This document shows, piece after piece, positions 471-55,055 of a stretch of 64,000 bases of DNA (position 1 is its first letter; each line of letters begins with the position of its first letter). The stretch covers positions 12,286 to 76,285 of the forward strand of contig JAHFKJ010000002.1 in NCBI GenBank assembly GCA_023245415.1, read 5' to 3'. Source of the DNA: Candidatus Gottesmanbacteria bacterium (lineage in GTDB: Bacteria > Patescibacteriota > Microgenomatia > UBA10105). A program made the translations under genes and the position numbers. The notes beneath the pieces were generated by a model that made no database searches, was not told the origin of the DNA, and saw only the letters and a list, made by a program, of their open reading frames with translations.

Positions 471-480
471 AATTATTTAC

Positions 481-1229: not shown

Positions 1230-1241
1230 GAGTTAAGAATG

Positions 1242-1270
1242 GGTGTAAAGCCAATCCACCCTTAGGGTGT
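1242..1270 (+). repeat. REP-like palindromic unit ggtgtaaagccaatccacccttagggtgt
   Basis: Matches the dispersed 29-nt repeat consensus and sits directly 3' of the RAYT gene. Confidence 0.7.
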
Positions 1271-11931: not shown

Positions 11932-13839
11932 ATGAGTAAAGATAAGTCAGGACACAAAAAATTAGGCTGGTTTTTGTGCTGGGCAATAGTTTTTGCCGAT
12001 ATCGGCACGAGTCTTTATTATGTACCGGGAATATTATTTGGCGAAGTGAAAAATTTAGCTGGTTTGTTTGTCGTCATGAGCAGTGTGGTATTTGTGCTTT
12101 TGGTGATGAAATATATCGAAATCACCGATCGATATCCTGAAGGAGGTGGGGTTGTCACCGTTGCTACACATGCTTTTGGACCCTGGTTTGGAGCGTTGGG
12201 CGGTATATTTATCACTGTCGATTATTTCTTAACTGCGTCAATTTCTTCGGTTTCCGGTTTTGCATATCTTAATTCTATTTTACCGTTGGGAAATTTAATC
12301 ATGTGGTTTGCGATAATAGGGGTAATATTATTGGGTATCCTAAATGTTATTGGCATCAAAGAATCAGCCGGTGTCACTGCATTAATTGCGGTAGCAGCGT
12401 TTATTGTAGATTTAATATTGGTGATTTTCGTGTCTGTTCAACTTCGTCCCGAGGGGTGGCAGCTGATTTTTCACAGTCTCACCCAAGTCTCATCACTGGG
12501 TTTATGGCCGATACTCACTGGTTTTGCTGGATCGTTTTTGGCATTTTCCGGACTTGAATCAATTTCTCAATTGTCTCCGGCAATGGGTTTACCCCGCAAA
12601 AAAATAGCGGGTATAGCGATGGCTTTAGTCGTTGGTTCAATTTTGGTTACATCGCCAATTTTAACTTTATTTTCTACCAATCTTCTAACAGCAAAAATAA
12701 ACGGAAGTAATGAAACCATTTTAGAAACTGTAAGCAGAGTGCGCGATCGGGAAAATCAATTTATTACAACGGCCAATCCAGAAACTAAGGCAATACTAAA
12801 GAATCAAATAATCGCAGGCAAAGAGTTTTCAGAGCGGTTTATTTCTGAGTTAGGTGCGCAATTCGGCGGTGCACCGATCAAAATTGCAGTTGTCCTGACA
12901 GCCTCTATATTGCTATTGTTTGCCGCCAACACTGCGATCATTGGGGCATATCACGTGTTTATAGCTCTGGCGCGGCAGAATTTTTTGCCGCATGCTTTGG
13001 AACTTCATAATGAGCGGTTTGATACACCCCATTGGTCGATACTTATGGCTGTTGTTCCGCCCATAATCATTATTATAGCTACACGGGCTGATGTTGCCAC
13101 ACTTGGTGCGTTGTATGCATTTGGTTTACTCGGTGCTTTTGGATTGTCGTCTTTAGGACTTGATGTAGTGAGATGGCGTGAGGGAAATCGAACCAGTTTG
13201 AAGTTTATTGTAGGCATAATTACAACTATTTTAGTCTTTATTGCCTGGGGAACCAACCTGTATTATAAATCTGCTGCGACTGTATTTGGAGGGACTGTGG
13301 CTACTTTTGGTATGCTGATTGCTTATGTGATGTATATGTGGTTTCCGCATAAGCATCCGGCTGTTGAACTGGTCATTAGCAAAGCTACTGAAGTGTCCAA
13401 AGATCAAATTTTGGTCCCCGTATATGATGAATTTAACCCGCATTTATATGATTTTGTTGCAGATTATGCAAAAAGTACCAAAAAATCAGTTATTCTTCTT
13501 TACATTCGGGAATTTACCGATATACTGCAAACCGTTGCAGATGATATAGAACGGGATGAAGAAGCAGCTGCGTTTTTACGCCGGGCCAAAAGACTATTGG
13601 ATAAGGAAAACATAATCAGTGAATATGTTTATGACGCGACCAATGAGACAGCCTCAGCGATTAATGACGCACGCGATACACTTAAACCGCACATTACAAT
13701 ACTTTCGCCCCACAAACGGCATTCTCGATCAGTTATCGTAAACTTCCTCAAAGGCAATATTGTCGAAAAAGTGTTGCGGCACAAAAACGGGCAGGTGATT
13801 ATTTACACTGGACCAACTACGCGAAGAGTTTCTAATTAG
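11932..13839 (+). CDS. APC-superfamily amino acid permease fused to a C-terminal universal-stress-protein (UspA)-like domain
   Basis: About 12 TM helices with an N-terminal GTSLYYVPG motif typical of APC permeases. The roughly 150-aa hydrophilic C-terminal domain resembles Usp. Confidence 0.55.
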   Translation: MSKDKSGHKKLGWFLCWAIVFADIGTSLYYVPGILFGEVKNLAGLFVVMSSVVFVLLVMKYIEITDRYPEGGGVVTVATHAFGPWFGALGGIFITVDYFLTASISSVSGFAYLNSILPLGNLIMWFAIIGVILLGILNVIGIKESAGVTALIAVAAFIVDLILVIFVSVQLRPEGWQLIFHSLTQVSSLGLWPILTGFAGSFLAFSGLESISQLSPAMGLPRKKIAGIAMALVVGSILVTSPILTLFSTNLLTAKINGSNETILETVSRVRDRENQFITTANPETKAILKNQIIAGKEFSERFISELGAQFGGAPIKIAVVLTASILLLFAANTAIIGAYHVFIALARQNFLPHALELHNERFDTPHWSILMAVVPPIIIIIATRADVATLGALYAFGLLGAFGLSSLGLDVVRWREGNRTSLKFIVGIITTILVFIAWGTNLYYKSAATVFGGTVATFGMLIAYVMYMWFPHKHPAVELVISKATEVSKDQILVPVYDEFNPHLYDFVADYAKSTKKSVILLYIREFTDILQTVADDIERDEEAAAFLRRAKRLLDKENIISEYVYDATNETASAINDARDTLKPHITILSPHKRHSRSVIVNFLKGNIVEKVLRHKNGQVIIYTGPTTRRVSN

Positions 13840-39630: not shown

Positions 39631-40548
39631 TTGGAGATACATATGGAAAATCAGGTAAACATCAGCAACCAAAGTACTCGGCAAATCGGCCAAAATCCGG
39701 TTAGCCGATCTATTCATACCCAGGAGAAACCAAAACTAAATTACTGGATCATTTCGACAGTTTGTTTCGCACTTTTGTTTATTTCTACACTTGCTTGGCA
39801 TATAATATACGTTTCCAAATTAGAGAAACAGAAAATTATGAATCCGACCCCTTTACAACAAAGTCAAAATCGAACTAGTTTAGTACCAACACCACTTGTT
39901 TCACCAATTGCCACGAATTCTCCCATACCTGGTAATTCACACTTTTCAAATAAAGAATTAAAGATTAGTTTTACTTACCCAAATGAGTTGGGTCCCGCAC
40001 AGGATAAACCAGCTTCAAAAGGAAAAGGTGGCTCTGCAATTGAAGGAGAAGAGTGGTGGAAAATTGATTTTGACGAAAGAGCATTCGTACCTGGTTATTA
40101 TGAAATTTCCGCAAGCACACCCAATTATGCTCCATCTTCTTGGGAAGGTTCACCTCACTGGCTCAATATCAAAATTAATACAACAGACAGTATAGAATCG
40201 GTAAAACAAAAATTGGTCTCCGCAAATTTTTTAGTATTGAAAGTCCAAAAAGTCTATAGCTCAAAAAATGTAGTTGCTTACATTGTTTGGACGCTTGATT
40301 GTTATGTAGGTTGTGCTCTCGCACGAGTATATCTTGTGCCTTTATCAAATGTTCAATATAATAATCTACTTATTTATACAATCTTAAAAAATCTAAACAC
40401 AGGTGAAGAAAGTGAAACCATAGACCACGCTAAAACTCTCGCAACTCCAGAAATTGTCAAAATAGAAAATAAGCAAGCAGATGGAATCGTTATTAAATAC
40501 CTTACGGGTCAAGATTTAATTTTCAATACGTTAATAATTGGAAATTAG
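39631..40548 (+). CDS. membrane-anchored hypothetical protein
   Basis: N-terminal TM (YWIISTVCFALLFISTLAWHIIYV). Extracellular S/T/P-rich linker followed by a globular region. Confidence 0.4.
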   Translation: MEIHMENQVNISNQSTRQIGQNPVSRSIHTQEKPKLNYWIISTVCFALLFISTLAWHIIYVSKLEKQKIMNPTPLQQSQNRTSLVPTPLVSPIATNSPIPGNSHFSNKELKISFTYPNELGPAQDKPASKGKGGSAIEGEEWWKIDFDERAFVPGYYEISASTPNYAPSSWEGSPHWLNIKINTTDSIESVKQKLVSANFLVLKVQKVYSSKNVVAYIVWTLDCYVGCALARVYLVPLSNVQYNNLLIYTILKNLNTGEESETIDHAKTLATPEIVKIENKQADGIVIKYLTGQDLIFNTLIIGN

Positions 40549-40583
40549 AATTACCTAGTTCGCCCTTAGGGCAAGAAAGTCGA

Positions 40584-40633
40584 GCTGCGGGTGGGCATAA
40601 TCGGCAAGCTTAGTGTAAAGGCGCCGCGCCCAC
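40584..40633 (+). repeat. GC-rich direct repeat, copy 2
   Basis: gctgcgggtgggcataatcggcaagcttagtgtaaaggcgccgcgcccac. Confidence 0.6.
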
Positions 40634-40699
40634 CTTTAACTTTTGAAAATCAGTCCGAATTTTTTGTAAAGAGCCCGCCAATCATTTTTAACTGCCACT

Positions 40700-40897
40700 A
40701 TGCAATCAAGAATTAAAGAATTTGTCGAAAAAAACAAGCATCTTCACGGACGCATACTCACTATGGAAAACGATCCACCTCGTTCATTTACGATTCAATC
40801 TAAAAAACAATTAAACATTTTGGCCTTCTTAGTAGGAATTATTGCATTAGGTTTATTGGTTGGAGGGATCTATATTTTGTGGACGAGTATTTATTAA
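40700..40897 (+). CDS. small single-TM protein
   Basis: 65 aa with a C-terminal TM helix. Confidence 0.3.
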   Translation: MQSRIKEFVEKNKHLHGRILTMENDPPRSFTIQSKKQLNILAFLVGIIALGLLVGGIYILWTSIY

Positions 40898-41094
40898 GAT
40901 TAAGACTGAAACCCGAAATCAAAATTTACCCCAAGGTAAATTAAATGACCTCTCCCAAATCTTATGTGTTCATTGATGATCGGGAAGATCATATGCAGCG
41001 AGCCCGTTCTTTTGGAATTAATTGAATAATATTTGAAAATGCGGCTCACCTGGAGTCAGAACTGAAACGTCGGGATTTTGGTTTCAACCTTGTT

Positions 41095-42111
41095 TCAGAA
41101 GCTTGATATTTGATATCCAGATTTTTTTACGAGAGGGATTAGACTACGCAGAGATTGTTTCCAGTGTTCTTTGTCAGAGAAATTTACCGGATCAAGACTT
41201 GCGAGTAAATTGGCGATTTGGGTCAATGTCCCATAATCAATTTTTTGAGAAGCGTTAATTTTTTTGGCTATAGATTTTAGTTCTTCCTGTTGAGCATCGG
41301 TTAATTTAATTTCACCAGAACTTACACGTCTGACTAAGTTTTGCAATTTCCCCAAATCCTTAGGTGAGGTGTTTTTTAGAAATTTTAATATTTGTAGTGG
41401 ATTTGCACCTCTATTTTTTAACTTTTCCTGAAGTTTGATATCATGCTGACGATTTTTCTTAAACCAGTCGCTATTTTTCAGTTCATCATTAATGACTTGT
41501 TTGATAATTTGTTTTTTGCCAAGTTTAATATCGACGATGTCTTTTTTGGCTACACCTGCGGAAAATCCCTTTTCTACTTTAATCTTTGACAGTGTTTTAC
41601 GCTCCTGTCCGACTTGTTCAATTGCTGCCACTTCAACTTCACCATCATCCGTATCAACCATTGATTTGTCAGAGTCGACATCTACTGTAAATGCAGTTCC
41701 GCGAACTGTTGCAAGTGTTGTGTCCGATTCAATTTCAAAACTTTCACCCACTCCTAAGAGTCTAGCGATGCGTGACCAGGTACGACCAGTTTTTTGGAAC
41801 AGTGTTATATGATCGTTGTCAGATTTAAGAGTGATTTGCGTATTGGCATCGAGCCGGATTTCTGAGCCATTACTTAAACTAATAGTTGCCCAAGAATTAT
41901 CTTGAGTGCGAATTATATCACCCGGATTTAGGGCCGATCCGGAAACTACTGTAGACCATTTCGAATCAGTTTGCTTTTCGACTTGACCCGACTCAATTAC
42001 CAAATGTGTTGGTTCGCTGAATTCTAAATCTGCGAATTGCTTTTGTAAAAACCACCACCCGGCTCCGGCTAATCCTAAAAGAATAATAAAGAAAATTAAA
42101 ATAACCACCAA
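41095..42111 (-). CDS. FecR-domain membrane protein
   Basis: N-terminal TM. The central region NPGDIIRTQDNSWATISLSNGSEIRLDANTQITL is typical of FecR (PF04773). Confidence 0.4.
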   Translation of the reverse strand: MVVILIFFIILLGLAGAGWWFLQKQFADLEFSEPTHLVIESGQVEKQTDSKWSTVVSGSALNPGDIIRTQDNSWATISLSNGSEIRLDANTQITLKSDNDHITLFQKTGRTWSRIARLLGVGESFEIESDTTLATVRGTAFTVDVDSDKSMVDTDDGEVEVAAIEQVGQERKTLSKIKVEKGFSAGVAKKDIVDIKLGKKQIIKQVINDELKNSDWFKKNRQHDIKLQEKLKNRGANPLQILKFLKNTSPKDLGKLQNLVRRVSSGEIKLTDAQQEELKSIAKKINASQKIDYGTLTQIANLLASLDPVNFSDKEHWKQSLRSLIPLVKKSGYQISSF

Positions 42112-42268
42112 TCAGCCCTTGAAACAGCCAGATCCGGATTTTTTTATTGGTTTTTCTGAAGCATTTTCTAACGTTTGTTTCTCTGTCATAAAATAAAACG
42201 AATTTTTCGTATCTTACTGATATATATTGTAATTTACAAGTTACGGATATTATCATATCATCAAAATA

Positions 42269-42655
42269 ATGAAAAAAACTGTATGCCGTAAGTGTAAATA
42301 TTTATTATTTTTCGCGGGAGCGCTAATTTTTACATTTATATTTTTACCCAGACCCGATTTTCAGTTTTCATCAGATTGTTCGTCTGGAATAAGTTGTCAG
42401 CGACAGGGGTGGCAGTTAAAGGAACCGCTCTTTTTTTTAATTTTAAGAGCTCTAAGATCAAATAATTTGTCTTTACCAGACACAAGGGAAAAAAATGTTT
42501 CGTCTCCATCTCCGGTTACTTCAAAATATACATGTCCTTCAAGTGCTTATATTGATTGTATGCCCGGCGTCTATTTTGTCCGCCCACAATGTACAAAAGA
42601 ATATTTAGATTGGATCCGGGTCAATTGTCCCAATTTCAAAGGGGTAGCGTATTGA
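42269..42655 (+). CDS. small secreted Cys-rich protein, paralog of the anti-sigma C-terminal domain
   Basis: Signal peptide. The C-terminus CPSSAYIDCMPGVYFVRPQCTKEYLDWIRVNCPNFKGVAY matches the C-terminus of 44740..45249 (CPSQGWIDCKPK...CNQNYIDWAKKNCSDFEGVVN). Confidence 0.4.
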   Translation: MKKTVCRKCKYLLFFAGALIFTFIFLPRPDFQFSSDCSSGISCQRQGWQLKEPLFFLILRALRSNNLSLPDTREKNVSSPSPVTSKYTCPSSAYIDCMPGVYFVRPQCTKEYLDWIRVNCPNFKGVAY

Positions 42656-42702
42656 TCTCTGCTTAACGATGTGGATACAATAGTGTATTAAGTATTAATT
42701 CT

Positions 42703-43422
42703 ATGCGGCGAAAACGATTCCATATCTATTCATCCAGGTGGCACCTTATAAGCACCATTTTATTTATTACTTTACCTTTTGTTTTCCTGCTGTTTTTCGC
42801 CGAGTTTGCGAATCTTACACGAGCCGAACTATTTTTTGATGTGAGTACTTCATTTGTGAGACTTTTAATCGCTTACATCTTTTCTGTGGGGTTGGCCTGG
42901 GCGTGGAGTGTTTGGTGTTTTCGGGGAAAGCTTACCAATATTCTCCTACCTCTATTTGATGTGCTGCAAAGTTTTCCTACATTTGCCGCTTTGCCAATCG
43001 CGACATTTGTTTGGGGGATTTCGAATTTCACAGTCATATTTTTTCTGGTATTTACCATCATTTGGCCGATTTTTTTCTCAATCGTTTCATCACTTAAGCT
43101 TGTGAAGCATGAGTGGGAAGAAGCAGTCCAAATTTATGGAGTCACTGGTTGGGATTATTTTCGCACATTTTTGCTTCCGGTCAGCATCCCTGGGCTTATC
43201 ACCGGTTCAATTATCGGTTTGGGCGAGGGGTGGGAGGCATTAGTGGCGACGGAAATAATTGTCGGACTTAAAGGCGGATTAGGTAATTTTTTCCAAACTT
43301 ATTCGCAAAATACACAAATTACAATTTTTGGTATTTTAGGGTTTTTGGTGCTCATCTTCAGTATTAACAAAATTATATGGCTCCCGCTTTTGGAATGGAG
43401 TCATAAGTATGTAGAAGAATGA
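42703..43422 (+). CDS. ABC transporter permease (NitT/TauT-type)
   Basis: BPD_transp_1-like polytopic protein located immediately upstream of the ATPase gene. Confidence 0.55.
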   Translation: MRRKRFHIYSSRWHLISTILFITLPFVFLLFFAEFANLTRAELFFDVSTSFVRLLIAYIFSVGLAWAWSVWCFRGKLTNILLPLFDVLQSFPTFAALPIATFVWGISNFTVIFFLVFTIIWPIFFSIVSSLKLVKHEWEEAVQIYGVTGWDYFRTFLLPVSIPGLITGSIIGLGEGWEALVATEIIVGLKGGLGNFFQTYSQNTQITIFGILGFLVLIFSINKIIWLPLLEWSHKYVEE

Positions 43423-43423
43423 T

Positions 43424-44164
43424 ATGGATACGATGATAAAAATAAGCGGCATCAATAAAACCTTTCACCTGCCTAATGGTAGCCGAACGCATGCTTTAGC
43501 AAATATTAATCTGGAAATTGGCAAAGGCGAATTCTTTATATTATTAGGCCCATCCGGATGCGGCAAATCCACACTTCTTAGGATCATCTGTGGATTGGAG
43601 AAGGCATCTGGTGGAGAACTTATCTTTGGAGAATCCGTAAAATCGACTGAAATGAGTTTTGTGTTTCAGCAATTTGCACTTCTTCCATGGTTAAGCGTAT
43701 ATGAAAATGTTGAGCTGAGTTTATTGGCAAAAAATTTATCTGAAACAGATCGGCGAACGCGTATTAATGCTGAACTGGAAAGGTTAAGACTCGATAAATT
43801 TGCACACGCATACCCGCGTGAATTATCGGGAGGTATGAAGCAGCGCGTGGGAATAGCTCGCGCGTTTGCGACGCAACCGAAAATCATTTTAATGGACGAA
43901 CCATTTTCAGAACTTGATTCATTTATTGCCCAAGAACTGCGGGAAGTTCTTTTGGATATTTGGCTCAAGGAAAAACCCACAATCGTGATGGTGACACACA
44001 TTATTCCTGAGGCTCTGGAACTGGCTGATCGGATAGCGGTCATGACTTCGCGTCCGGGCACGATTGAAAAATTATTTACTAACGATCTTGCCCGTCCCAG
44101 GGCGAAACGTTCTCCCGAATTTTTCAAATTTGAGGATGAAGTACTTGCCGCCGTTAAGCCATAA
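43424..44164 (+). CDS. ABC transporter ATP-binding protein
   Basis: Walker A GPSGCGKST, signature LSGGMKQRV, and Walker B ILMDEP. Confidence 0.85.
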   Translation: MDTMIKISGINKTFHLPNGSRTHALANINLEIGKGEFFILLGPSGCGKSTLLRIICGLEKASGGELIFGESVKSTEMSFVFQQFALLPWLSVYENVELSLLAKNLSETDRRTRINAELERLRLDKFAHAYPRELSGGMKQRVGIARAFATQPKIILMDEPFSELDSFIAQELREVLLDIWLKEKPTIVMVTHIIPEALELADRIAVMTSRPGTIEKLFTNDLARPRAKRSPEFFKFEDEVLAAVKP

Positions 44165-44276
44165 TTACTACATATATTGTATATAATTCTTATATTTCGA
44201 CTTACAGTAATTCATGACATTTTATTTGCGCAGTTTTTTATTTTATTATTCATTTTAGAATATATTAGTAGCCATA

Positions 44277-44738
44277 ATGGAAGAGTTTTATGTAGCTTTT
44301 ATCGATAAGATATTCACCTTTTGCCTGTATCGGACGGGTAAGTGGCAAGTGGCTCAAGACTTGACGAGTGCGACATTTTTGAAATTCTTCAAGACCAATT
44401 GGCGCCTTTATGAAAATCCGACTGCGTATCTATACACGGTGTGCCGCAATACAATCATTGACTATTATCGGCAACGTAAAGAGACTGTATCTTTAGAGAC
44501 ATTAATCGAATCGGGCCATGAGGTGGGAGCAACTTTTGACAATGACCAGCGTCTACTTATGATGGAGATCTTCAAAGAAATAGAAAAACTGCCTACTGAT
44601 CAAAAAGACGTAGTGCTTATGCGATATGTACAGGATTTGGATAATAAAACGATCGCCCAGGTACTTAGTAAAACTGAGGCGGCGGTGAAATCGCTGGCAC
44701 ATCGGGGGTTAACAACGTTGCGCGGGAAATTAAAATAA
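44277..44738 (+). CDS. ECF-type RNA polymerase sigma-70 factor
   Basis: Region 2 (YLYTVCRNTIIDYYR) and a region 4 helix-turn-helix (DNKTIAQVLSKTEAAVKSLAHRG). Confidence 0.65.
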   Translation: MEEFYVAFIDKIFTFCLYRTGKWQVAQDLTSATFLKFFKTNWRLYENPTAYLYTVCRNTIIDYYRQRKETVSLETLIESGHEVGATFDNDQRLLMMEIFKEIEKLPTDQKDVVLMRYVQDLDNKTIAQVLSKTEAAVKSLAHRGLTTLRGKLK

Positions 44739-44739
44739 T

Positions 44740-45249
44740 ATGCATCAGGATATCGAATCACTACTTAAAAATTTGCCGAAATTTAAAGCTTCTACCAAGT
44801 TTGCGGACCAGCTAGAGCAGCAATTACTGAAAGAGTTAAGTCCTAAACCGGCACACAGGCTGCGATTCAGTCTGCTATTTTCAATTCCCACGATCATTAT
44901 ATTGTTTGTTGCAATCGGTTTGACGAGTTTAAAGCACAAACAAATTCCTGTATTAACGCCGCCGCCGCAAGAAGGGAAAAAATTTATGGCACCAAATGCA
45001 GCGGATAGAACTGGGGATAATTCTTTTGAAAAAAGCGAGACAGTTTCTAGTACAACACCTTGTACACAAAACACTGATCAATGCGATCCAAATAGCTGTG
45101 ACTTTCAGAAATGTCAATATGTATGTCCGTCGCAGGGCTGGATAGATTGTAAGCCAAAAGCTTCTTCAGGTGGTCGGTATCAATGCAATCAGAACTATAT
45201 TGATTGGGCGAAAAAGAATTGTTCGGATTTTGAAGGAGTGGTGAATTGA
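44740..45249 (+). CDS. putative anti-sigma factor with single TM and extracytoplasmic Cys-rich domain
   Basis: Translationally coupled to the sigma gene (TAATATG overlap). One TM helix. Six-Cys C-terminal module shared with 42269..42655. Confidence 0.4.
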   Translation: MHQDIESLLKNLPKFKASTKFADQLEQQLLKELSPKPAHRLRFSLLFSIPTIIILFVAIGLTSLKHKQIPVLTPPPQEGKKFMAPNAADRTGDNSFEKSETVSSTTPCTQNTDQCDPNSCDFQKCQYVCPSQGWIDCKPKASSGGRYQCNQNYIDWAKKNCSDFEGVVN

Positions 45250-45273
45250 TTAAGTTTAGTGGATAATTAAGCT

Positions 45274-45840
45274 ATGATTCTTTCTGATCGGGATATTAAA
45301 AAAGCGTTAAAACAGCGGTTAATTATATTTAAACCTGAATTGGATTTGCAGATACAGTTAGGTTCGTGTTCGGTGGATCTGCGATTGGGAAATTCCTTTC
45401 GCGTTTTTAAACACAGCCATTTTCCTTTTATTGATCCGCATGATAAAAAATTGGCGTTTGACATGATGGAAGAGGAAGTCATCAAAAAGGGCCAGACTTT
45501 TATTCTCCAGCCGGGGGATTTTGTGCTGGCTACAACTATCGAATCGTTTAGTCTGCCCGATAATTTGCTGGCTCGGCTTGAAGGTCGATCATCACTTGGT
45601 AGACTCGGAATCGTTGTTCATTCAACCGCCTCAATTTTTGAACCCGGGTGGGATGGAGTAGTGGTTATGGAACTTGGGAATTTAGGACGGATGCCGGTTG
45701 CGCTGTATCCCGGCATGCGGATTTGCGCCCTCACTTTTGAACAATTAACGAGTGATGTCGATGTACCATACTCAAAGAAAAAAGGCGCGAAATATATCAA
45801 ACAATCGACACCACTTCCGAGTAAAATTGCCGATGAATAG
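45274..45840 (+). CDS. dcd: dCTP deaminase
   Basis: The N-terminal MILSDRDIKKAL and GSCSVDLRLG motifs match the dCTP deaminase/dUTPase fold. Confidence 0.75.
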   Translation: MILSDRDIKKALKQRLIIFKPELDLQIQLGSCSVDLRLGNSFRVFKHSHFPFIDPHDKKLAFDMMEEEVIKKGQTFILQPGDFVLATTIESFSLPDNLLARLEGRSSLGRLGIVVHSTASIFEPGWDGVVVMELGNLGRMPVALYPGMRICALTFEQLTSDVDVPYSKKKGAKYIKQSTPLPSKIADE

Positions 45841-45853
45841 CATATTAAGAATA

Positions 45854-45882
45854 GGTGTAAAGCTGATCCACCCTTAGGGTGT
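45854..45882 (+). repeat. REP-like unit ggtgtaaagctgatccacccttagggtgt
   Basis: Matches the repeat consensus. Confidence 0.7.
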
Positions 45883-45888
45883 GAATCT

Positions 45889-46887
45889 ATGGTCAATGAA
45901 AAAGAGTGTTATGTTCCGGTGAATGCGTATGCGACGGGCAGAATATTATTCAAGATAGATAGAGAAAGATATTTACCATTAAGTCCCCATTTTTGGGCTG
46001 GTTTAGCCGGATTACCGCAAGTAGTGACTGTAAGTGATGGTGACAGGATTATTTATCATCGTAATGATGCAGGAGTTAACATTGGAGAAGGTCAGAGTTT
46101 TACTGGTACCATAGAAAAACTTACGTTTGATTATCAAGAACCCCAACTTACCTCTTGTGAAATAGGAGGTAAACCATTTGTGTTTGGCCATTTGCCAATT
46201 CATTTACAAGATAAGCAGATGGCAATTGATTTATTCTTTCCCAATGATCAGAATCAAGCACATCTAGCGATTATTAAGACGTTAAAAACATTGTTGCTTG
46301 TCAAAGATTGGGCGACTTTAAATCATTGTATAAATGTCGCAGCCTCAGCAGAAAGACTGGCCATTTTATACGGGCTATCTACCGAATTTTCCCGGGATAT
46401 TCGTTTGGCCACTCAGCTTCATGATGTCGGAAAATTAAACGTGCCCGGTTCAATCTTACGAAAAACATCCCCAACCGAAAGACAAATAATGCCAAAAGAT
46501 GAGTTGAAAGTTTTACGGGCACACGCTGCATACGGGGCTAGATTATTTTCCTCGTTAAAAAAGTTCTGGCTTTATCAGGTAATTGCCGGAAATCACCATG
46601 AAGACTGGTCAGGTACCGGATATCCTAGTGGATTAAAAGGGACAGATATTCCGCTTGCACCGCGAATTGTCGCATTTGTTGATAAATTTGACGCGATGCG
46701 AAAAAAGCGGCCATATCGAGAAGCCATGTCGCATTTTGAAGTAGTGGAAAAAATGAAGGGGAAGATTTTGAGTCAACTCGATCCTGATATTGTAAATACT
46801 TTTTTTGAAAATTTAGAAGTTATTGTTGGGAAAGAAAGTACTCTGCCAAGTAGTAATAATTCTCACAAAATATTATTTAACGTGTAA
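45889..46887 (+). CDS. HD-GYP domain phosphohydrolase
   Basis: HDVGK...GNHHEDWSGTGYPSGL matches the HD-GYP signature. Confidence 0.65.
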   Translation: MVNEKECYVPVNAYATGRILFKIDRERYLPLSPHFWAGLAGLPQVVTVSDGDRIIYHRNDAGVNIGEGQSFTGTIEKLTFDYQEPQLTSCEIGGKPFVFGHLPIHLQDKQMAIDLFFPNDQNQAHLAIIKTLKTLLLVKDWATLNHCINVAASAERLAILYGLSTEFSRDIRLATQLHDVGKLNVPGSILRKTSPTERQIMPKDELKVLRAHAAYGARLFSSLKKFWLYQVIAGNHHEDWSGTGYPSGLKGTDIPLAPRIVAFVDKFDAMRKKRPYREAMSHFEVVEKMKGKILSQLDPDIVNTFFENLEVIVGKESTLPSSNNSHKILFNV

Positions 46888-46904
46888 TATACCCGTCATA
46901 CGCT

Positions 46905-46961
46905 GGTCCCGATTAAATCGGGAGCAGCTTAGAGGGGTAAATACTCGCCTGCCTGCCGGCA
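46905..46961. terminator. tandem hairpins (tcccgatt-taa-atcggga; 12-nt palindrome cctgccggcagg) between convergent genes
   Basis: Perfect palindromes. Same cctgcctgccgg motif as 21363-21384. Confidence 0.4.
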
Positions 46962-47005
46962 GGAACATTCTCAAGTGTGAGTGGTATAGTTTGAGGAAAA
47001 GTTTT

Positions 47006-50000
47006 TTACAGCCTCCCATACATAAGTGTAGTGTTTTGGTAGCTGCCGTTATTCGTCCTGAAAAATAAAAATTCCACCGTTTCCGGCCGATTCCACCCTA
47101 TCCGCGACCATTTAATCGACGGGCCGGCGTCATAGCCATTGTTATTTGAGACCAGGGCTATTGCCGTTTGGGTTCCCCATGTGGAACTTCCGCTTGGCTT
47201 TTTGATATAGCAGAAATTCTGCAAATTTTTGCAATCCGCAGTCGCCGATGTACTTTTTGGGTGCCCGTGCCCCAAAATATATAAATCTCCGCCGGAATTT
47301 ATGGCAAGCCCCGGATCGTGCGTATACGCGTTTACCGCCTGGTCCACCCAAACGCCCGTTGCATTAGTCACATAATGAATATGCCCGTAATCGCCGGTCG
47401 CATCAAAATTTTCCATATACACCAGATGCTTTTTGTTTCCGCTGTCAATCACCATACTCGGACCCTGGTCAATATTAATCCCAGAATTAGTACTCGTCCA
47501 TGCTGGCGCTGTGCTTACCGACTCAATCGTCCCCCAGCTCCCCGTCACTGGCTTGCTTCTGACCAATATCTTAGTCGGACTGGTATTCTCTCCTACCCAG
47601 GCAACTGTTACTCCGTCGTCAACCGGCGAAACCACCAACTGCGGATGATTACTGCTCCCGGCAGTATCAATTTGCGTCGGCCCGTCAGTCAGTGTCAACG
47701 TATTACTTGCCGCGACATAAGTATATGCCCGATAACTTATGTGGTTATTGGCTGACCAATACGCCACATGCAGTTTTCCGCTGCCATCTGCCATTCCCGA
47801 TACTCCGCCCGACCCTAAATAATTTCCCGAAACCGTTGGATTGCCGCTGCCCAATGTAATCGCGCTTTTAAAAGAATTCGTGGTGGTATCAAATGGATAA
47901 TCTTTTAAATTTCCGCCCTGCGTATTGGTCAAGACATGAATTATGGCTGTCCCATCATTCACGGCATCGACTTGTATCACCGCGTTCGCATCACTAACCT
48001 GTGCAGTCCCGTTAAAATCAGCCGTAGCCGAGGGCAGCCCGGAAACCGTGGTCCAATAAGCTTTCAGTGTGTTCGAGCTTTCGGCCAGACCGGCAAATGT
48101 ATACACCCGATCGGAATTGGTTCGGACAATTTGGCGGGGTGTCACGTCGGCATAGCCGCTATTTATAGGAAACGCCGCCGGACTTGTTAATGTCGGTGTG
48201 CTGGTTGGAAAAATTTGAGTAAAATTATCTATCACATTGGCCAAATCAAAACTGTTGACTTTATTGTCATAGTTTTGATCAATCGCCGCTGAATTTGCTA
48301 ACCAATTCTCAAGCGTTAATTTAATATCCAAAGCATCAACTTTCCCGTCATTATTCACATCACCGTTTTTAAAAGCAAGCGTAGCCGTAGGAGTTAAAGA
48401 TGGAGAGTTTACCGGTATCGGACTGGGACTTACGGCAACTGTCCCAGAATGTTTAAACACCATGATATCCCCGCCGTTTCCCTCAACTACTATCAAATCA
48501 TTCGCGACATAAGTATATCTGGGTAAAAAACCAGCGCTGTAGGCCGTTCCCGAATTGGCATTAAACAGTGCCGGGTCATTTTTCCATCCCGGCGGATCGG
48601 AAACTCCAAAATAACCCCACCAGGCCGGGCCGCTGAAAAACCTGCCGCCGTCAGTCATGTAGTGCAAATTGGTACAGCTGTCTGTCCAGTGGGTAATCGT
48701 GTTTTTGCAACTGATCGTTTGTATGGCTCGGATAAACACCGGTTGCCGGAAAGTCGAAATTCCCGTAGCAAAAGTCAAGCCCGCAGATTTATTATTCCGA
48801 CTCGCGCTATCGATCATTTCACCCACTGCAGCAGCCCAATGTGAATTAAAAACCGTGTTTCCGGCCACCGTTATCGGTACTTCCTCGTCAACAATATCAT
48901 TGTATGCATCACCTTCAGATTTATGCACCAAACTTTTAATAAATCTTAAGTTGCCCGTCGGTAAATTTGGTACGGTCGTATTATCCAAAACCATCTCTCC
49001 TAAATGGCCGTCCCACCGCCAGTCGATTGGGTTTGCCTGTCCATTTCTAAAAATCATATAAGCTACTTCATCGCCATTGGGCCACACTTTTACCGCCGGT
49101 TGTGTTCCCATTACCCCGTACCCTTCAGTTTGGGTACTGATTAAATCTTCTGTACTGCCATATCCGACTGCGGGAATAAATTTTTCCGTCCCGGTACTCA
49201 AATCCAGAGCAAATAAGTTCTTATATTGCGGATTGTCTCTGAGCCAATTTTGGTTCACGGTTTGATCACTTGGAAAACTGGTAGTTGTCCCGGGATGGAT
49301 CAACATGTAATCGGGGGGTAGCTGCATTCTTAACAACACCACTTCATGATTATCGGCAATTACCGGCCAGCCATTCTCAAATTGTGTACCTACCGGCGTT
49401 CCATTTATCGTCGTAGCTACTGACCTAAACGGATCACCCGGACTATTAACTGTCGGCTTCACGCGCCATTTAACTCCTCCGGTACTACTGTTTACTGCAT
49501 GCACAAACAAATCATCGGTGGCAAAAATAACTACATCAAATTTAGCCGAATAACTGGGAAGTGTTGCCACCGTTGCATTAGCCGCATATGCGTTCGCCCA
49601 TGCTGATGTCATCGTCGTCGTGTTGACTTTGTACAAATGCCCATCATCAGTAACAGCAAAGACAAATTGTCCCACCAGTAAAATTGCCTTACTAATGGGG
49701 TTTTGGGCATTAAATGTCACAAACGTCCCGTCGAGTACATTTATTTTATACACCAGTCCATTTGCTCCACCCGCATAAACAAAACCCGCATCATATGCCG
49801 GTGCGCCGTTAAAAGCCGTCGCCGTAGTATTCCAGACTGGTACACCTGTAGATTTTGTCAAAGCATACAACCCGTGATTGCCGGCCGGAACAAAAATATA
49901 GTTTCCCCCGGTCACCGTCCGGGCTTCCTTGGGCGCGTTGTACACATGATTTCCAGTGCCGCCGTTGCCATCTGCACCGTTCCACGACCACAAAAATTTC

Positions 50001-50161
50001 CAATTTATAGAACTTCCCAAACCCGGATCATCTGCAGTATATCCGCTCCGCTGGGCATTACCCGCGTCTTGGCTCCAGTCAGAGGCAAAAACTTGTGCTG
50101 TTTGAAAAAGATATATGACCAACGTGATAAATAAAATAGATTTACACCTGTATTTATTCAT
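47006..50161 (-). CDS. large secreted protein with PQQ-like beta-propeller repeats and a type-I dockerin module
   Basis: Signal peptide. The N-terminal WSQDAGNAQRSGY...LYAL..G..W repeats resemble PQQ/WD-like propeller blades. GDVNNDGKVDALDIKLTLENWL...DNKVNSFDLANVIDNF is a duplicated dockerin Ca-binding segment. Confidence 0.5.
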   Translation of the reverse strand: MNKYRCKSILFITLVIYLFQTAQVFASDWSQDAGNAQRSGYTADDPGLGSSINWKFLWSWNGADGNGGTGNHVYNAPKEARTVTGGNYIFVPAGNHGLYALTKSTGVPVWNTTATAFNGAPAYDAGFVYAGGANGLVYKINVLDGTFVTFNAQNPISKAILLVGQFVFAVTDDGHLYKVNTTTMTSAWANAYAANATVATLPSYSAKFDVVIFATDDLFVHAVNSSTGGVKWRVKPTVNSPGDPFRSVATTINGTPVGTQFENGWPVIADNHEVVLLRMQLPPDYMLIHPGTTTSFPSDQTVNQNWLRDNPQYKNLFALDLSTGTEKFIPAVGYGSTEDLISTQTEGYGVMGTQPAVKVWPNGDEVAYMIFRNGQANPIDWRWDGHLGEMVLDNTTVPNLPTGNLRFIKSLVHKSEGDAYNDIVDEEVPITVAGNTVFNSHWAAAVGEMIDSASRNNKSAGLTFATGISTFRQPVFIRAIQTISCKNTITHWTDSCTNLHYMTDGGRFFSGPAWWGYFGVSDPPGWKNDPALFNANSGTAYSAGFLPRYTYVANDLIVVEGNGGDIMVFKHSGTVAVSPSPIPVNSPSLTPTATLAFKNGDVNNDGKVDALDIKLTLENWLANSAAIDQNYDNKVNSFDLANVIDNFTQIFPTSTPTLTSPAAFPINSGYADVTPRQIVRTNSDRVYTFAGLAESSNTLKAYWTTVSGLPSATADFNGTAQVSDANAVIQVDAVNDGTAIIHVLTNTQGGNLKDYPFDTTTNSFKSAITLGSGNPTVSGNYLGSGGVSGMADGSGKLHVAYWSANNHISYRAYTYVAASNTLTLTDGPTQIDTAGSSNHPQLVVSPVDDGVTVAWVGENTSPTKILVRSKPVTGSWGTIESVSTAPAWTSTNSGINIDQGPSMVIDSGNKKHLVYMENFDATGDYGHIHYVTNATGVWVDQAVNAYTHDPGLAINSGGDLYILGHGHPKSTSATADCKNLQNFCYIKKPSGSSTWGTQTAIALVSNNNGYDAGPSIKWSRIGWNRPETVEFLFFRTNNGSYQNTTLMYGRL

Positions 50162-50287
50162 AATGTGACATAAGTAAATGTATAATAGTTTAAATTAGCT
50201 TGCAATAGAGGATAAATCGCAGCTTATAAAAAATTAAGGATCGACACTTATCACCTCACCGCATGTCCTTAGCTAGGTATTAGTATA

Positions 50288-50316
50288 GGTGTAAAGCTAA
50301 TCCACCCTAAGGGTGT
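50288..50316 (+). repeat. REP-like unit ggtgtaaagctaatccaccctaagggtgt
   Basis: Matches the repeat consensus. Confidence 0.7.
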
Positions 50317-50338
50317 GAAGTGTCATTCCCGAATTATA

Positions 50339-51859
50339 CTAAAAAAACGAGTTTATATATTCTTCTATCCATGTATACCCGCTGGGAGCTAAATTGTTTC
50401 TATCAGCCGGATTATTTTTATCCAGTCCCACATTCGTCTCCCAAGCATCTGGCATCCCATCATGATCAGTGTCAAGCGGAGCTGTTCCCGTGGCATATGC
50501 CGGAAAACCATTAAATACATCGCGCCTATCGGTTGGCTCGTCGCACGTTATAATGCAATCAATAATAATACCTGTCCCATTTCTGACACTATCTACCACA
50601 TAATTATCCACCATGTCTCTTTTGGGAGCCAGCGCTCCCGCCTTCGACAGCACTAAATTGTAAGCCGTATCCGCAGTCTCGGCAATTACTTGTCCGGATG
50701 AAAATGCCGGGCTAAACACCTGGTAACGCATAGTATTACTGACTCCATCCATCACCCGATCAGTCCCAATAAACGTCCCATCGCGTTCATAAAACTTATT
50801 ACCCGACACATAAATTTTGCTTCCAGCCCCCAGTCCATCAGAAATTTCTATGGCGTTCCTTGTCACGGATGACGAATTTACTCCTCTTTTTATCGTATTT
50901 CCAATCGCGTTGGCCAGTGACGGCAACCCCGACAAATTCGAATCCGTAAACTTAATTGGATAAATTCCGCCGCCAAAATTATAAGTCACGTTGTTAATTA
51001 TCTCTGTACTCGTATCTCCAAATATCCCTGGCGACCGGTCAGCGTCGTGTGCAATCAGATTATGATGCACCGAAACATTCTTAGAGTGATCTCCAATCAA
51101 TAGTCCCATACTATGAGGGTCAAACACTCCTGGCGGCTTACCTTCATCCACATGAATGCTGTCATACAAACCTTCTGAAGTAATATTCCAGGAAAAAGTC
51201 ACATCGTGCACTTTACTGTTCCAGGTCGAGATATTTTCATCCAGTCCCCAGGAAATCGAGTTATGATCTACTACCACGTTATACACCTCCACCGACCCCT
51301 CTCCCGATACAGTCACCCCGTCCCGCGAAGTACTTGGACTGCCAGTCGGATCATCCCCTGGCCGCAATCTCAGCCCCCTGACAATTACATCATGGGTGGC
51401 AATCCGTAAATAAGATTTTCGAATTACGACTCCATCTCCCGGTGCAGTTTGTCCGGCAATAGTTATATACGGGTTATTTATTTTAAGCTCACTTGCCGCG
51501 TCAATATATCCCCCCGTCCTAAATACTACTAGCCGCGGTCCCACAGCTGCGATCGCCGCCCGCAAACTCCCCGCTCCCGTATCGTTTAAATTTGTCACTT
51601 CAATTACTTGGCCTCCCCTTCCACCAACCGTATCCGTCCCAAAGCCCGCCGCTCCCGGAAATGCTTTAATTGGCACACTCGGTAATTTTGGCGAGAAAAT
51701 ATCCAGTGTATTTATTTTACCATCATGATTCACATCTATCGCTGGCACATTTTCTCCATATCTAAGTATCGCAGCTTTAATATCATAATTATTTACGGCC
51801 AGTACCGGGCCTACCCACAAAAATCCGCTTGTTACCAAAAAAATTATTTTTCTTCTCAT
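50339..51859 (-). CDS. secreted right-handed beta-helix (pectate-lyase-like) protein with dockerin-like N-terminal segment and C-terminal DTDHDGMPDAWE Ca-binding motif
   Basis: Signal peptide. DVNHDGKINTLD, beta-helix repeats (NxxG/hydrophobic stacks), and a C-terminal thrombospondin-3-like DxDxDG motif. Confidence 0.45.
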   Translation of the reverse strand: MRRKIIFLVTSGFLWVGPVLAVNNYDIKAAILRYGENVPAIDVNHDGKINTLDIFSPKLPSVPIKAFPGAAGFGTDTVGGRGGQVIEVTNLNDTGAGSLRAAIAAVGPRLVVFRTGGYIDAASELKINNPYITIAGQTAPGDGVVIRKSYLRIATHDVIVRGLRLRPGDDPTGSPSTSRDGVTVSGEGSVEVYNVVVDHNSISWGLDENISTWNSKVHDVTFSWNITSEGLYDSIHVDEGKPPGVFDPHSMGLLIGDHSKNVSVHHNLIAHDADRSPGIFGDTSTEIINNVTYNFGGGIYPIKFTDSNLSGLPSLANAIGNTIKRGVNSSSVTRNAIEISDGLGAGSKIYVSGNKFYERDGTFIGTDRVMDGVSNTMRYQVFSPAFSSGQVIAETADTAYNLVLSKAGALAPKRDMVDNYVVDSVRNGTGIIIDCIITCDEPTDRRDVFNGFPAYATGTAPLDTDHDGMPDAWETNVGLDKNNPADRNNLAPSGYTWIEEYINSFF

Positions 51860-51985
51860 ATCCTACCTCCCAACACCACCCTTTCACTTTCCTTGCTGCT
51901 ATGTACTAGTAAAAACATGATATTCATCAGTTGTCTCTCGGCAGAAACCACAATCACATGAATATCCAAACTGTCTTTCATAGGT

Positions 51986-52156
51986 TTAGCCTATCAAATT
52001 TAAAGAACTACCTAAGATCTGTGTCATCCACAGTATTCCCGTTCGTTGGGTATTGCCCGCGTCTTGGCTCCAGTCAGCAGCAAACACATGCGATGTTTGA
52101 AAAAGAGATACAACGAACGTGATAAATAAAAGAGATTTCCGCAGAAATTTATTCAT
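51986..52156 (-). pseudogene. duplicated 5' fragment (promoter plus first ~45 codons) of the large dockerin protein gene
   Basis: MNKFLRKSLLFITFVVSLFQTSHVFAADWSQDAGNTQRTG parallels MNKYRCKSILFITLVIYLFQTAQVFASDWSQDAGNAQRSG. The upstream 120 nt (52141-52260) also match 50162-50280. Confidence 0.6.
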
Positions 52157-52270
52157 AATGTCACATAAGTAAATGTATAACACTTTATATAAGCCTGCAA
52201 TAGGGGATAAATGCGAGTTTATAAACGTAATAGGGAACGAAAAATGAGGGTAAAATATTTCGTGATATAA

Positions 52271-52636
52271 TTGCGGTATATGGGAATGACTGATGTGCAA
52301 CTGACCATTAAAAACCCGCAAAATCCTAAAAGTAGCTACATAGGTACATTTTTAGTTGATAGCGGAGCAACGTATACTGTGGTGCCGGAATCAGTACTCA
52401 AAAGATTGGGGATAAAGCCGGATCGTGAAGAAACATTTGTTTTAGCAGATGGCAAATCAATTAAGAGAAAAGTGGGTAGTGCGTTGTATGAATATCAAGG
52501 GATCAAGAGCGCCGCGCCTGTCCTGTTTGGGGAAAAGCATGACAGCAACCTACTTGGCGTATTTACTCTTGAAGCTCTTGGGTTGACGCTTGATCCGCTT
52601 AAACGGCAGCTCTATAAGGCACTGCTTCGGTTATAG
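52271..52636 (+). CDS. retropepsin-like (clan AA) aspartic protease
   Basis: FLVDSGATYTVVP aspartyl protease motif. About 120 aa. Confidence 0.55.
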   Translation: MRYMGMTDVQLTIKNPQNPKSSYIGTFLVDSGATYTVVPESVLKRLGIKPDREETFVLADGKSIKRKVGSALYEYQGIKSAAPVLFGEKHDSNLLGVFTLEALGLTLDPLKRQLYKALLRL

Positions 52637-53257
52637 CTCGCTTTTGTTACGTATTAGAATTGGTGTAAAGTTAAAACACAAAATAGTGAAGGTATAAATT
52701 ATGCCAAAAAGGCCACTCTATATCAATATCTTAAATATTTTTCTTATCGCTGGTTACCCATATATCTTATATTACCTTTTCTTTCCACTTATCAAATACA
52801 AAATTAGTCAAGAAATCTTTATATTTACCTTAATCTCGAGCATGATTTACTTTATATGTTACTTAGGCTTGTGGTACAGAAATCCTGGAGTTTTCCGATT
52901 TTTTTAACAACATTTATCGCAAAACAGCTGTTTTATATCGTGATCGGCAAATGGAATGTTTATGTTCTAGGTGGATTATTAAATTTGTTTATTGTAAAGA
53001 TAATTGCAAGTAACAATAAAACAGTTTCTTCACAATAATTGTAAATGCAAATACCAAGAATGCATCAGCTGTAAATAGAAACTCTTTATCATCTTCACAA
53101 TTAGTGGTTATAACGGTAGTTTTTGCCGGTTTAAGTGTGATACTAGGAGATGGACTGCTAGCATTATTTTGGTTAATCGCATTGATCACCTTTGGTTTAA
53201 CAATTACAACTTTTATTAGAGAAAAAATTGTAAGTAAAAGAAAGTAACTTGAGAATA

Positions 53258-53286
53258 GGTGTAAAGCTAATCCACCCTAAGGGTGT
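53258..53286 (+). repeat. REP-like unit ggtgtaaagctaatccaccctaagggtgt
   Basis: Matches the repeat consensus. A half-copy sits at 52662-52680. Confidence 0.7.
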
Positions 53287-53288
53287 AT

Positions 53289-55055
53289 TTACTTCACCGT
53301 CACGCTTTTGGCCAGGTTCCTGGGCATATCGGGGTCGAGGTTTTTTTCGAGAGCCAGAAAATAGGCAAGCAATTGACCCACCACAATATTGGGAATTATC
53401 GTAGCTTCCTCGGCATCCTGAACTTCTAAATACTCATCAAAAATTTCATGAGACTTGTGCGAGATGCCAATTATGTTGCCGCCTCTGGCTTTCATTTCCA
53501 TGGCTCCGGCTAAATTTGCCCCATACGTTTCATCATTTGGAACATATGCGATACACGGCGTACCTTTTTCGATCAAAGCGATCACGCCATGTTTGAGTTC
53601 ACCCGCCGCGAAGCCTTCGGCATGAATGTAGGATATTTCTTTAATTTTTAAGGCAGTTTCAAGGGCTGTTGGGTATGAAAGACCGCGGCCGATAATATAT
53701 ATATGATGCGCATTTTTAAGCTGGTGGGCAATATTTTTTATGTTATTCACATTATTAAATAATTTTTGAATTGAGGTTACTGATTGAATGAGGATTTTTT
53801 GCCCTATTTTTTTATTATCGCTCAGAGTGTATGCAAGCAACACCAACTGCGCCAGTGTTGCAGTTACTGCTTTGGTTGAAGCCACGGCTTTTTCTATTCC
53901 GGCACCTATGAGTAACTGATAGTGTGATTCTCGGTAGAGTGTTGAACCTAAGACGTTAAGCAGTGCTCCGATTTGGGCACCACTATTTTTGGCCGCTTTT
54001 ATAGCTTCGAGGGTGTCCATGGTTTCTCCTGATTGCGATAGGGCAATTACCAAACTTTTTGCGGTTAAAAAGTCTAAATGATAGGCAAATTCACTGGCTG
54101 GAGCCCAGTTGATATGTTTATTAGCAATTTTTGAAAACAAATATGTGCCTGCCAAACTTACATAAGCACTACTTCCGCAACCCACCAGGTAAGTTCCATA
54201 CGATTTTTTAATCCTATCAGCAAGTTGGTCAGTTGAAATTGAAGACTGGTTAACGAGCGTATTTATGATTTCTGGTTGCTCATGTATTTCTTTGAGCATA
54301 AAGTAAGAAAATTTACCCCGGGATGCATCAGTTTTTTTCCAGTCAAGTCTTTGAGGTTGTATTTTTTTGAATTTTCCGTTTGCTGCGTCATATATATTGA
54401 CTTCACTCATTGTCACTACTGCCATTTCATCATCTTTAAGAAAGTAAACATCGTGGGTAAGGGGGAGTAAAGCTGGGGCATCACTGGCAATAAAATTCTC
54501 CTGCTCGCCAAATCCGATGACGAGTGGTGAGCCGTTGCGGATGGCAATTAACTCTTGATTATGGGCGTTTAGGGCAATAAATGCGTTGAGCCCGGTCATT
54601 TGTTTAAAACTCATTCGTACGCTTAGGGCAAATTCGTGTGTTTTTGATAATTCTTCGATTAGGTGTGTGGCTACTTCAGTATCTGTTTCGGAAATAAACT
54701 TGTGGTTACTCTTAATCAATTCCTTTTTTAACTGCGCATAATTTTCAATGATGCCGTTATGTATGAGAGCAATTGATTGCAAACAGTCGGTGTGGGGGTG
54801 GGCATTCATTTCGGTTACGCCGCCGTGAGTGGCCCAGCGGGTGTGGCCGATAGCAATATTTCCGGGCGGCAAATCGGAAACTGAAGCAGTACCAATTTTA
54901 CCTATCCTTTTTTTCACCACTACTTTAGAATTCGTAATTGGTACAACTGCTACTCCCCACGAGTCATACCCGCGGTACTCCAGTGACTTAATGCCTGCAA
55001 ATACAATTTGGGCTGCTGTAGATTTTTTACCAATATAGCCAAAAATTCCACACAT
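53289..55055 (-). CDS. glmS: glutamine--fructose-6-phosphate aminotransferase
   Basis: N-terminal MCGIFGYIG (Ntn Cys) followed by two SIS domains. Confidence 0.9.
   Translation of the reverse strand: MCGIFGYIGKKSTAAQIVFAGIKSLEYRGYDSWGVAVVPITNSKVVVKKRIGKIGTASVSDLPPGNIAIGHTRWATHGGVTEMNAHPHTDCLQSIALIHNGIIENYAQLKKELIKSNHKFISETDTEVATHLIEELSKTHEFALSVRMSFKQMTGLNAFIALNAHNQELIAIRNGSPLVIGFGEQENFIASDAPALLPLTHDVYFLKDDEMAVVTMSEVNIYDAANGKFKKIQPQRLDWKKTDASRGKFSYFMLKEIHEQPEIINTLVNQSSISTDQLADRIKKSYGTYLVGCGSSAYVSLAGTYLFSKIANKHINWAPASEFAYHLDFLTAKSLVIALSQSGETMDTLEAIKAAKNSGAQIGALLNVLGSTLYRESHYQLLIGAGIEKAVASTKAVTATLAQLVLLAYTLSDNKKIGQKILIQSVTSIQKLFNNVNNIKNIAHQLKNAHHIYIIGRGLSYPTALETALKIKEISYIHAEGFAAGELKHGVIALIEKGTPCIAYVPNDETYGANLAGAMEMKARGGNIIGISHKSHEIFDEYLEVQDAEEATIIPNIVVGQLLAYFLALEKNLDPDMPRNLAKSVTVK

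Follow-up and report, generated by a model that had tools for sequence, protein, structure and literature searches.

A gene remnant with its promoter region beside ordinary REP repeats at a secreted dockerin-protein locus of a Patescibacteria-like genome

Genes and features of the locus

The 64,000-nucleotide (nt) stretch of contig JAHFKJ010000002.1 analysed here (the window, in whose positions all coordinates are given) contains a duplicated promoter region and gene 5′ end, one copy of which opens an intact gene for a dockerin-bearing protein, while the other is a short stub in front of a pectate-lyase gene, with repetitive extragenic palindromic (REP) units nearby. All main genes at the locus lie on the minus strand and follow one another, as transcribed, in the order glmS (55055-53289), a gene for a 506-amino-acid (aa) protein (51859-50339) and a gene for a 1051-aa protein (50161-47006). 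The 1051-aa protein is intact and secreted, and matches the PQQ_2 propeller repeats and beta-propeller family of Pfam as well as an internal Dockerin_1 domain (residues 600-645); we refer to its gene as the PQQ gene. The 506-aa protein, which has its own signal peptide and a GGGAGGT ribosome-binding site before its start codon, resembles pectate lyases of the PL1/PelZ type. It matches NCBIfam NF041900 (pectate lyase PelZ) with an E value of 7e-62 and 209 bits, under the equivalog cut-off of 840, and the pectate lyase of PDB 9buj with an E value of 3.5e-16; thousands of its homologues are labelled pectate lyase or PL1 by their sources, and it has no Pfam match.

Between glmS and the pectate-lyase gene, the plus strand carries a small aspartic protease gene (52295-52636; 113-121 aa), divergent from the stub, and a run of hydrophobic open reading frames (ORFs; 52701-53247). 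The protease is probably of clan AA and retropepsin-like: its translation holds a DSGAT motif and matches Pfam PF13650 and PF13975 (the Asp_protease_2 and gag-asp_proteas families) above their gathering scores, and it reaches 54.5 bits against TIGR03698, where the cut-off is 57.35. The hydrophobic ORFs occupy three successive frames (68, 60 and 47-76 aa) of a stretch with a guanine-plus-cytosine (GC) content of 0.31. A conceptual fusion of the three frames found no homologues, and when the last frame was searched exhaustively with HMMER, the only matches were chance ones, repetitive and hydrophobic, to giant proteins; the stretch may be a decayed or an orphan gene, perhaps a frameshifted orphan membrane-protein gene. 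An Rfam scan of 49900-53400 found no family, with one chance microRNA match (E 0.5). The labels that the first-pass annotation had given to these genes (pectate-lyase-like, retropepsin-like protease and dockerin protein) are sound, because the Pfam, NCBIfam and PDB matches agree with them.

A duplicated promoter region and 5′ end

When the two minus-strand regions are aligned, positions 49999-50230 (copy A) and 51994-52225 (copy B) share 187 identities over 233 columns (80.3%) with two single-base gaps, at an E value of 7e-58 in the pairwise comparison and 1e-55 against the whole window. The ungapped core of the duplication spans 189 nt at 82% identity, and no third copy of the segment was found in the whole window. 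The duplication described at first pass is therefore real and far beyond chance, although the identity of about 85% quoted for it was slightly high. Copy A consists of the 69 nt upstream of the PQQ gene (50162-50230) and its codons 1-54, and so contains the genuine start of that gene. The copied 5′ end had been put at about 45 codons; it extends over 54, of which 40 are in frame in copy B.

Identity between the copies is 84% over the upstream 69 nt, 80% over the signal-peptide codons, 83% over codons 27-40 and 74% over codons 41-54, and falls to the random level outside both ends of the duplication. Codons 27-40 include an identical run of 22 nt that encodes DWSQDAG(N). The signal peptide is preserved in both copies and, as the earlier reading held, so is the WSQDAGN motif.

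The truncated copy

Copy B opens a stub ORF of 56 codons (51986-52156, minus strand), with the translation MNKFLRKS...DWSQDAGNTQRTG...LIG before the stop. The stub keeps the reading frame of the PQQ gene over codons 1-40, with 70% amino acid identity; one base is lost near codon 41 and one is gained about eight codons further on, so that the frame is shifted over roughly codons 41-48 and then regained, after which the homology to copy A ends and the stop codon follows. A tblastn search with the 1051-aa protein found no further piece of it in 51860-53290, and elsewhere in the window only an unrelated dockerin-like match at 4424-4618. With the early stop, this means that copy B is not the start of an intact gene, and its earlier description as an orphan fragment holds. 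It has the marks of a pseudogene or gene remnant, in that it significantly matches a portion of a working gene, its frame is broken and the remainder is missing. Over the 40 in-frame codons, the ratio of non-synonymous to synonymous change (dN/dS) comes to 0.32, from 13.5 non-synonymous against 9.5 synonymous differences (Fisher p = 0.02; the numbers are small), which suggests that much of the divergence between A and B arose while both copies were coding. The match at 4424-4618 (plus strand) is a second dockerin-like coding segment of the window and shares 46% identity with residues 590-653 of the PQQ protein.

Between the stub's stop and the start of the pectate-lyase gene lies a spacer of 126 nt (51860-51985, minus strand) in which homology to neither PQQ nor pectate-lyase proteins was found. 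A 41-codon ORF in it (51856-51981, minus strand) begins 4 nt past the stub's stop, and its own stop overlaps the pectate-lyase ATG (ATGA); this ORF is called as a gene in three assemblies and has no homologues among the proteins collected. It had been proposed that copy B might serve as a signal-peptide cassette. The stub cannot lend its signal peptide in this way, because it stops 126 nt upstream of a pectate-lyase gene that has its own ATG, ribosome-binding site and signal peptide.

The locus was compared in four assemblies from three samples, comprising the window, two European Nucleotide Archive (ENA) contigs and Logan contigs, and all four have the same structure. The ENA contig k141_4559829 (16.5 kb) corresponds to 37006-53527 of the window, both copies included, with six differences, all within 64 nt of the pectate-lyase gene (51116-51179) and none in the repeat; they are synonymous, since the protein is identical. 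The second ENA sample and the Logan contig L076 (window 51121-53286) show the same gene order. The ends of Logan contigs were considered as structural variants and rejected, the one at 53286 being explained by the REP 31-mer described below and the one at 51121 by the cluster of single-nucleotide polymorphisms (SNPs) at 51116-51179. The SNP cluster itself suggests a short tract exchanged between strains by recombination or conversion.

Promoter regions and transcription

Both copies retain a pair of promoter-like hexamers, TTGCAA-17-TACATT in copy A (50205-50177, minus strand) and TTGCAG-17-TACATT in copy B, and these, together with the leader and start-codon region, are nearly unchanged between them. 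A sigma-70 scan of the minus strand upstream of both genes found no strong promoter, only hexamer matches of 7-8/12. Because divergent plus-strand genes precede the pectate-lyase gene, its promoter should lie within 51860 to about 52294, the interval that holds copy B, and no terminator-like site is present on the minus strand between the stub and the pectate-lyase ATG. It is plausible that copy B acts as an alternative promoter for the pectate-lyase gene. The REP after the pectate-lyase stop codon is terminator-like on the transcribed strand and is followed by the intact promoter copy. From this arrangement, the promoter region kept with the stub would now drive the pectate-lyase gene, the REP would end or stabilise the resulting transcript, and the intact promoter copy would drive the PQQ gene, so that the two secreted proteins may form separate transcription units with near-identical control regions.

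REP elements and their transposase

A 31-nt unit, TAGGTGTAAAGCTAATCCACCCTAAGGGTGT, occurs without mismatch at 50286-50316 and 53256-53286, and with two to three mismatches at 479-509 (minus strand), 1240-1270 (plus strand) and 45852-45882 (plus strand). These five matches, at up to three mismatches, compare with none in 100 shuffles. The consensus is AAGAATAGGTGTAAAGCTAATCCACCCTWAGGGTGT, with a unit of 31-36 nt and, in every intact copy, a 5-bp stem (CACCC/GGGTG) and a 3-nt loop; the fold energy is no better than that of shuffles (z -0.7 to -1.5). Four dispersed copies stand on the plus strand among the genes of the window. One (50279-50316) separates the pectate-lyase stop codon from the PQQ promoter region, a second (53249-53286) abuts the glmS stop codon, and a third (45845-45882) fills the spacer of 48 nt that divides the dCTP deaminase gene from the HD-domain gene. 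The fourth, at about 52643-52690, lies just past the protease stop codon and has lost its palindrome. It had been taken for a half-unit at 52662, and its assignment to the REPs stands, but it is a decayed copy of full length. In total, the 64 kb hold five intact copies, one decayed copy and one REP-associated tyrosine transposase (RAYT) gene.

The RAYT gene (555-1229, plus strand, 224 aa) is flanked by the inverted REPs at 479-509 and 1240-1270, forming a unit that spans 479-1270. Its product matches Pfam PF01797 (Y1_Tnp) with 32.3 bits, above the gathering score of 23, and NCBIfam NF047646 (REP-associated tyrosine transposase) with an E value of 2.5e-12 and 46.9 bits, below the equivalog cut-off of 80; the translation carries the HUH motif NHFHFMI and the tyrosine motif RYIHLNP, and matches to IS200/IS605 TnpA structures in the PDB reach an E value of only about 1. 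REP-RAYT systems are defined by just such an arrangement, a transposase gene flanked by inverted REPs (PMC3116915; PMC5581495). The repeats of the window are genuine REP elements with their own RAYT, as the count against shuffles and the inverted flanking copies show, and the first-pass name for them was correct. Most REPs end in a GTAG or CGTC tag (Di Nocera 2013, PMC3733652), whereas neither tetranucleotide is present on either strand of this consensus. REPIN doublets were also absent, the dispersed copies at 45852, 50286, 52648 and 53256 all being singlets on the plus strand. The motif had no match in the GTDB species representatives and one in the JGI metagenomes, on contig L006, which otherwise shares nothing with the window. 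This copy and all six in the window lie between ORFs, often a few nt from a stop or start codon. In the literature searched, no paper linked RAYTs with Patescibacteria or the candidate phyla radiation (CPR).

Several further observations concern the placement of the repeats. A PIF1-like helicase gene (1277-2590) comes directly after the RAYT gene. The spacers 1230-1276 and 45841-45888 (47-48 nt, between co-directional genes) are wholly filled by a REP that begins 2-7 nt past the stop of the first gene and leaves exactly 6 nt before the ATG of the second, so that its AGGGTG arm takes the place expected for a ribosome-binding site. The REPs at 52643 and 53249 likewise begin 2-7 nt past the stop of a co-oriented ORF. 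Codons 4-8 of the PQQ gene (50136-50148, minus strand) read ACAGGTGTAAATCTA and resemble the inverted 5′ half of the REP at 50286-50300; this likeness forms an inverted repeat (I1, 77% over 26 nt) and sits where copies A and B diverge most. It is probably due to chance, as 3.7 such 13-mers are expected per window.

Origin of the stub

We think it fairly probable that the stub is what decay has left of the 5′ end of another PQQ-propeller/dockerin gene, a paralogue that once stood upstream of the pectate-lyase gene, and that its promoter region has perhaps been reused. The ancestral order would have been PQQ-B, pectate lyase, PQQ-A, in a cluster of secreted dockerin-bearing proteins; the body of PQQ-B would then have been deleted, leaving its promoter region, 5′ leader and signal-peptide coding start as a 56-codon stub with two frameshifts. 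The homology, truncation and frameshifts were observed directly, as was a structure that is identical across independent assemblies; the reuse of the promoter is what we infer. The dN/dS of 0.32 fits a period in which both copies were under selection.

A lost paralogue is also the simpler source because relatives carry clusters with several PQQ paralogues. Homologues of the locus proteins come from genomes named Patescibacteria or Microgenomates. On L071, a contig from JGI, the gene for a pectate lyase with 49% identity to the one studied here lies directly upstream of two PQQ genes (632 and 701 aa) on the same strand, so that the pairing of pectate lyase and PQQ genes is older than this genome. 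Tandem PQQ genes of 1089 and 806 aa are found in L005, and the contig of P0003 has PQQ genes of 742 and 1283 aa with another secreted-protein gene (823 aa) between them; the 5′ coding DNA of such tandem paralogues is 77-98% identical. In L005, a Patescibacteria metagenome-assembled genome (MAG; GCA_023379125.1), a 209-nt 5′ coding stretch (approximately 10092-10300 and 13503-13711) is 98% identical between the two paralogues, which suggests gene conversion between them. A 549-aa neighbour of the PQQ gene in L005 was considered as a pectate-lyase homologue and rejected. A syntenic comparison anchored on glmS was likewise set aside, its best partner being a Peribacteria MAG at 48% identity, too distant to tell presence from absence.

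Several points weigh against the lost paralogue and the reuse of its promoter. A full-length gene B has never been observed at the position of the stub, and the nearest homologues are 53% identical for the PQQ protein and the pectate lyase and 48% for glmS, with no close relative in the collections searched. The dN/dS value rests on 23 differences, and selection on copy A alone would lower it too. The hexamers are weak, with 8/12 matches for copy A and 7/12 for copy B, and promoters of this phylum are poorly defined; identity is roughly even between promoter and coding parts (74-84%), with no sign that promoter B was selectively retained.

The homology is limited to 233 bp, as it would be if a full second gene had never existed and illegitimate recombination had placed upstream of the pectate-lyase gene only a copied piece of some 230-360 bp, made up of the start of the PQQ gene, the sequence before it and perhaps the adjacent REP. 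A weak homology does resume across the REP, where 50269-50358 on the side of copy A and 52643-52723 on the side of copy B are 68% identical (E 1.5e-5), and the 27-nt right flank past the REP matches at 20/27 positions, a value reached by 12/2000 shuffles. If this homology is real, the copied unit would have been about 360 bp long and included the REP, and the protease gene would lie in an indel of about 400 nt that later split copy B; a stretch of that length with the protease gene is present in the surroundings of copy B and absent between copy A and its REP. We treat this as a hint only, since much of the signal is the REP consensus itself. The in-frame dN/dS is below the expectation for a copy B drifting neutrally since its origin, and the clusters of PQQ paralogues in relatives also speak for a former gene. 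On balance, a fragment-only duplication seems unlikely.

The composition of the locus could instead point to incoming DNA. In that case, a higher-GC cassette of pectate lyase, REP and PQQ-A would have recombined with a PQQ gene already in place, using homology on one side and an illegitimate join on the other; this would have severed the older gene at codon 54 and spared only its 5′ stub. The PQQ and pectate-lyase genes together (46.9-51.9 kb) have a GC content of 0.44-0.51, compared with about 0.39 in the sequence to their left and right and 0.31-0.40 in the stretch that reaches from the stub to glmS; the shift falls near the 51994 junction, and the two copies resemble diverged functional alleles. 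The high GC content may merely reflect secreted proteins rich in Gly, Ala, Pro and Thr, however, no donor or recipient state was observed, and the pectate lyase adjoins PQQ genes in a distant relative too. We consider such a replacement doubtful.

The first-pass annotation had read the REP-bounded block, with 2970 bp between identical REPs in direct orientation, as an accessory island that looked like a recombination footprint at REP sites and might supply an alternative promoter and signal-peptide cassette. The REPs that bracket it are identical at 31/31 positions, and REPs are reportedly substrates for recombination, as Shyamala et al. are said to have described in EMBO J in 1990. The block has no mobility gene inside it and no integrase, transposase or tRNA gene at its borders (the nearest tRNAs are at about 38 kb), and its content is the pectate lyase, the stub, the aspartic protease and the orphan ORFs. 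No GC shift coincides with the REP borders (50283-53290), and none of the four assemblies lacks the block. The variant shared by the bounding copies is the common form of the family rather than the sign of a single event, since the unrelated contig L006 carries it as well, and the pectate-lyase gene is part of a conserved and older cluster type. The duplication itself does not end in REPs: one end (49999/51994) falls within the PQQ coding region and the other stops 35-55 nt short of the REP of copy A. Nor can the stub pass a signal peptide to any gene. The island and its recombination footprint are thus very unlikely, and the REPs here are ordinary dispersed members of a REP-RAYT family rather than island borders. 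A related idea, in which the block with its two same-strand REPs is an element of IS200/IS605 type moved by the RAYT as single-stranded DNA, with the stub marking a past insertion or excision, is highly improbable; it draws on the hairpins that such elements likewise have at their left and right ends on one strand, and were it true, REP pairs would mobilise cargo genes (pectate lyase and protease) in a CPR genome. An assembly artefact, in which two strain variants of the locus were stitched together, might be suspected from the metagenome source and the nearby SNP cluster, but hardly any weight can be given to it, since the structure is identical in the window, k141_4559829, the second ENA sample and L076, the longest run common to the copies (22 nt) is too short to confuse assemblers working at k=31-141, and the frameshifts of the stub lie inside the homologous part, before the junction. 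The locus as a whole looks like ordinary genome wear, not a mobile island.

Other features of the window

The 16S rRNA gene, within 35271-37685, spans 1675 nt against a model of 1533 positions and therefore carries inserts. It is followed by a weak match to a group II intron domain (37130-37221) and by an ORF for a LAGLIDADG endonuclease (37221-37685). A blastn comparison of the window with itself also found a 50-nt direct repeat (39506-39555 and 40584-40633), 90% identical and about 1.08 kb apart.

Significance and comparison with known systems

None of these findings overturns current understanding. The locus offers an example of how clusters of secreted dockerin proteins turn over in very small uncultured genomes, where a paralogue is lost, its promoter stays and a neighbour may inherit it. 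If both upstream regions are active, they would form a natural candidate promoter pair for a phylum in which promoters have barely been characterised. Of more use, as a side result, is the REP-RAYT pair in a Patescibacteria-like genome, which widens the known host range of these elements and provides a defined repeat for studying their spread.

REP-mediated duplications and deletions of chromosomal segments in enterobacteria were reportedly described by Shyamala, Schneider and Ames in 1990. The present locus resembles such rearrangements in that direct REPs flank a segment and duplicated sequence lies nearby, but its join-points are outside the REPs, in coding sequence at 49999/51994 and, for copy A only, 35-55 nt from a REP. 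The repeats resemble REP-RAYT and REPIN systems (Nunvar 2010; Bertels and Rainey 2011, PMC3116915; Ton-Hoang 2012; Bertels 2017, PMC5581495). As there, an extragenic repeat of 31-36 nt with the palindrome CACCC-TWA-GGGTG accompanies one Y1/HUH transposase with inverted flanking repeats, and further copies are dispersed between genes; the differences are the Patescibacteria-like host, the occurrence as singlets, the missing GTAG/CGTC tag, the 5-bp stem and a RAYT that scores under the equivalog cut-off.

The proteins recall cellulosome-like clusters of dockerins and cohesins. The PQQ protein matches Dockerin_1, the pectate lyase has dockerin-like calcium-binding motifs (DVNHDGKINTLD) and the homologues in relatives sit beside cohesin proteins, whereas no gene for a cohesin turned up beside the locus studied here. 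The stub itself is most like the 5′ pseudogene stubs of tandem gene arrays, with which it shares homology over the promoter, leader and first codons, a broken frame, a missing gene body and the presence of arrays in relatives; it differs in that the ancestral full-length gene is here unobserved and the reuse of its promoter would follow from the arrangement of the genes. The feature is a gene remnant with its promoter beside ordinary REPs, of a known kind and in a poorly sampled lineage.

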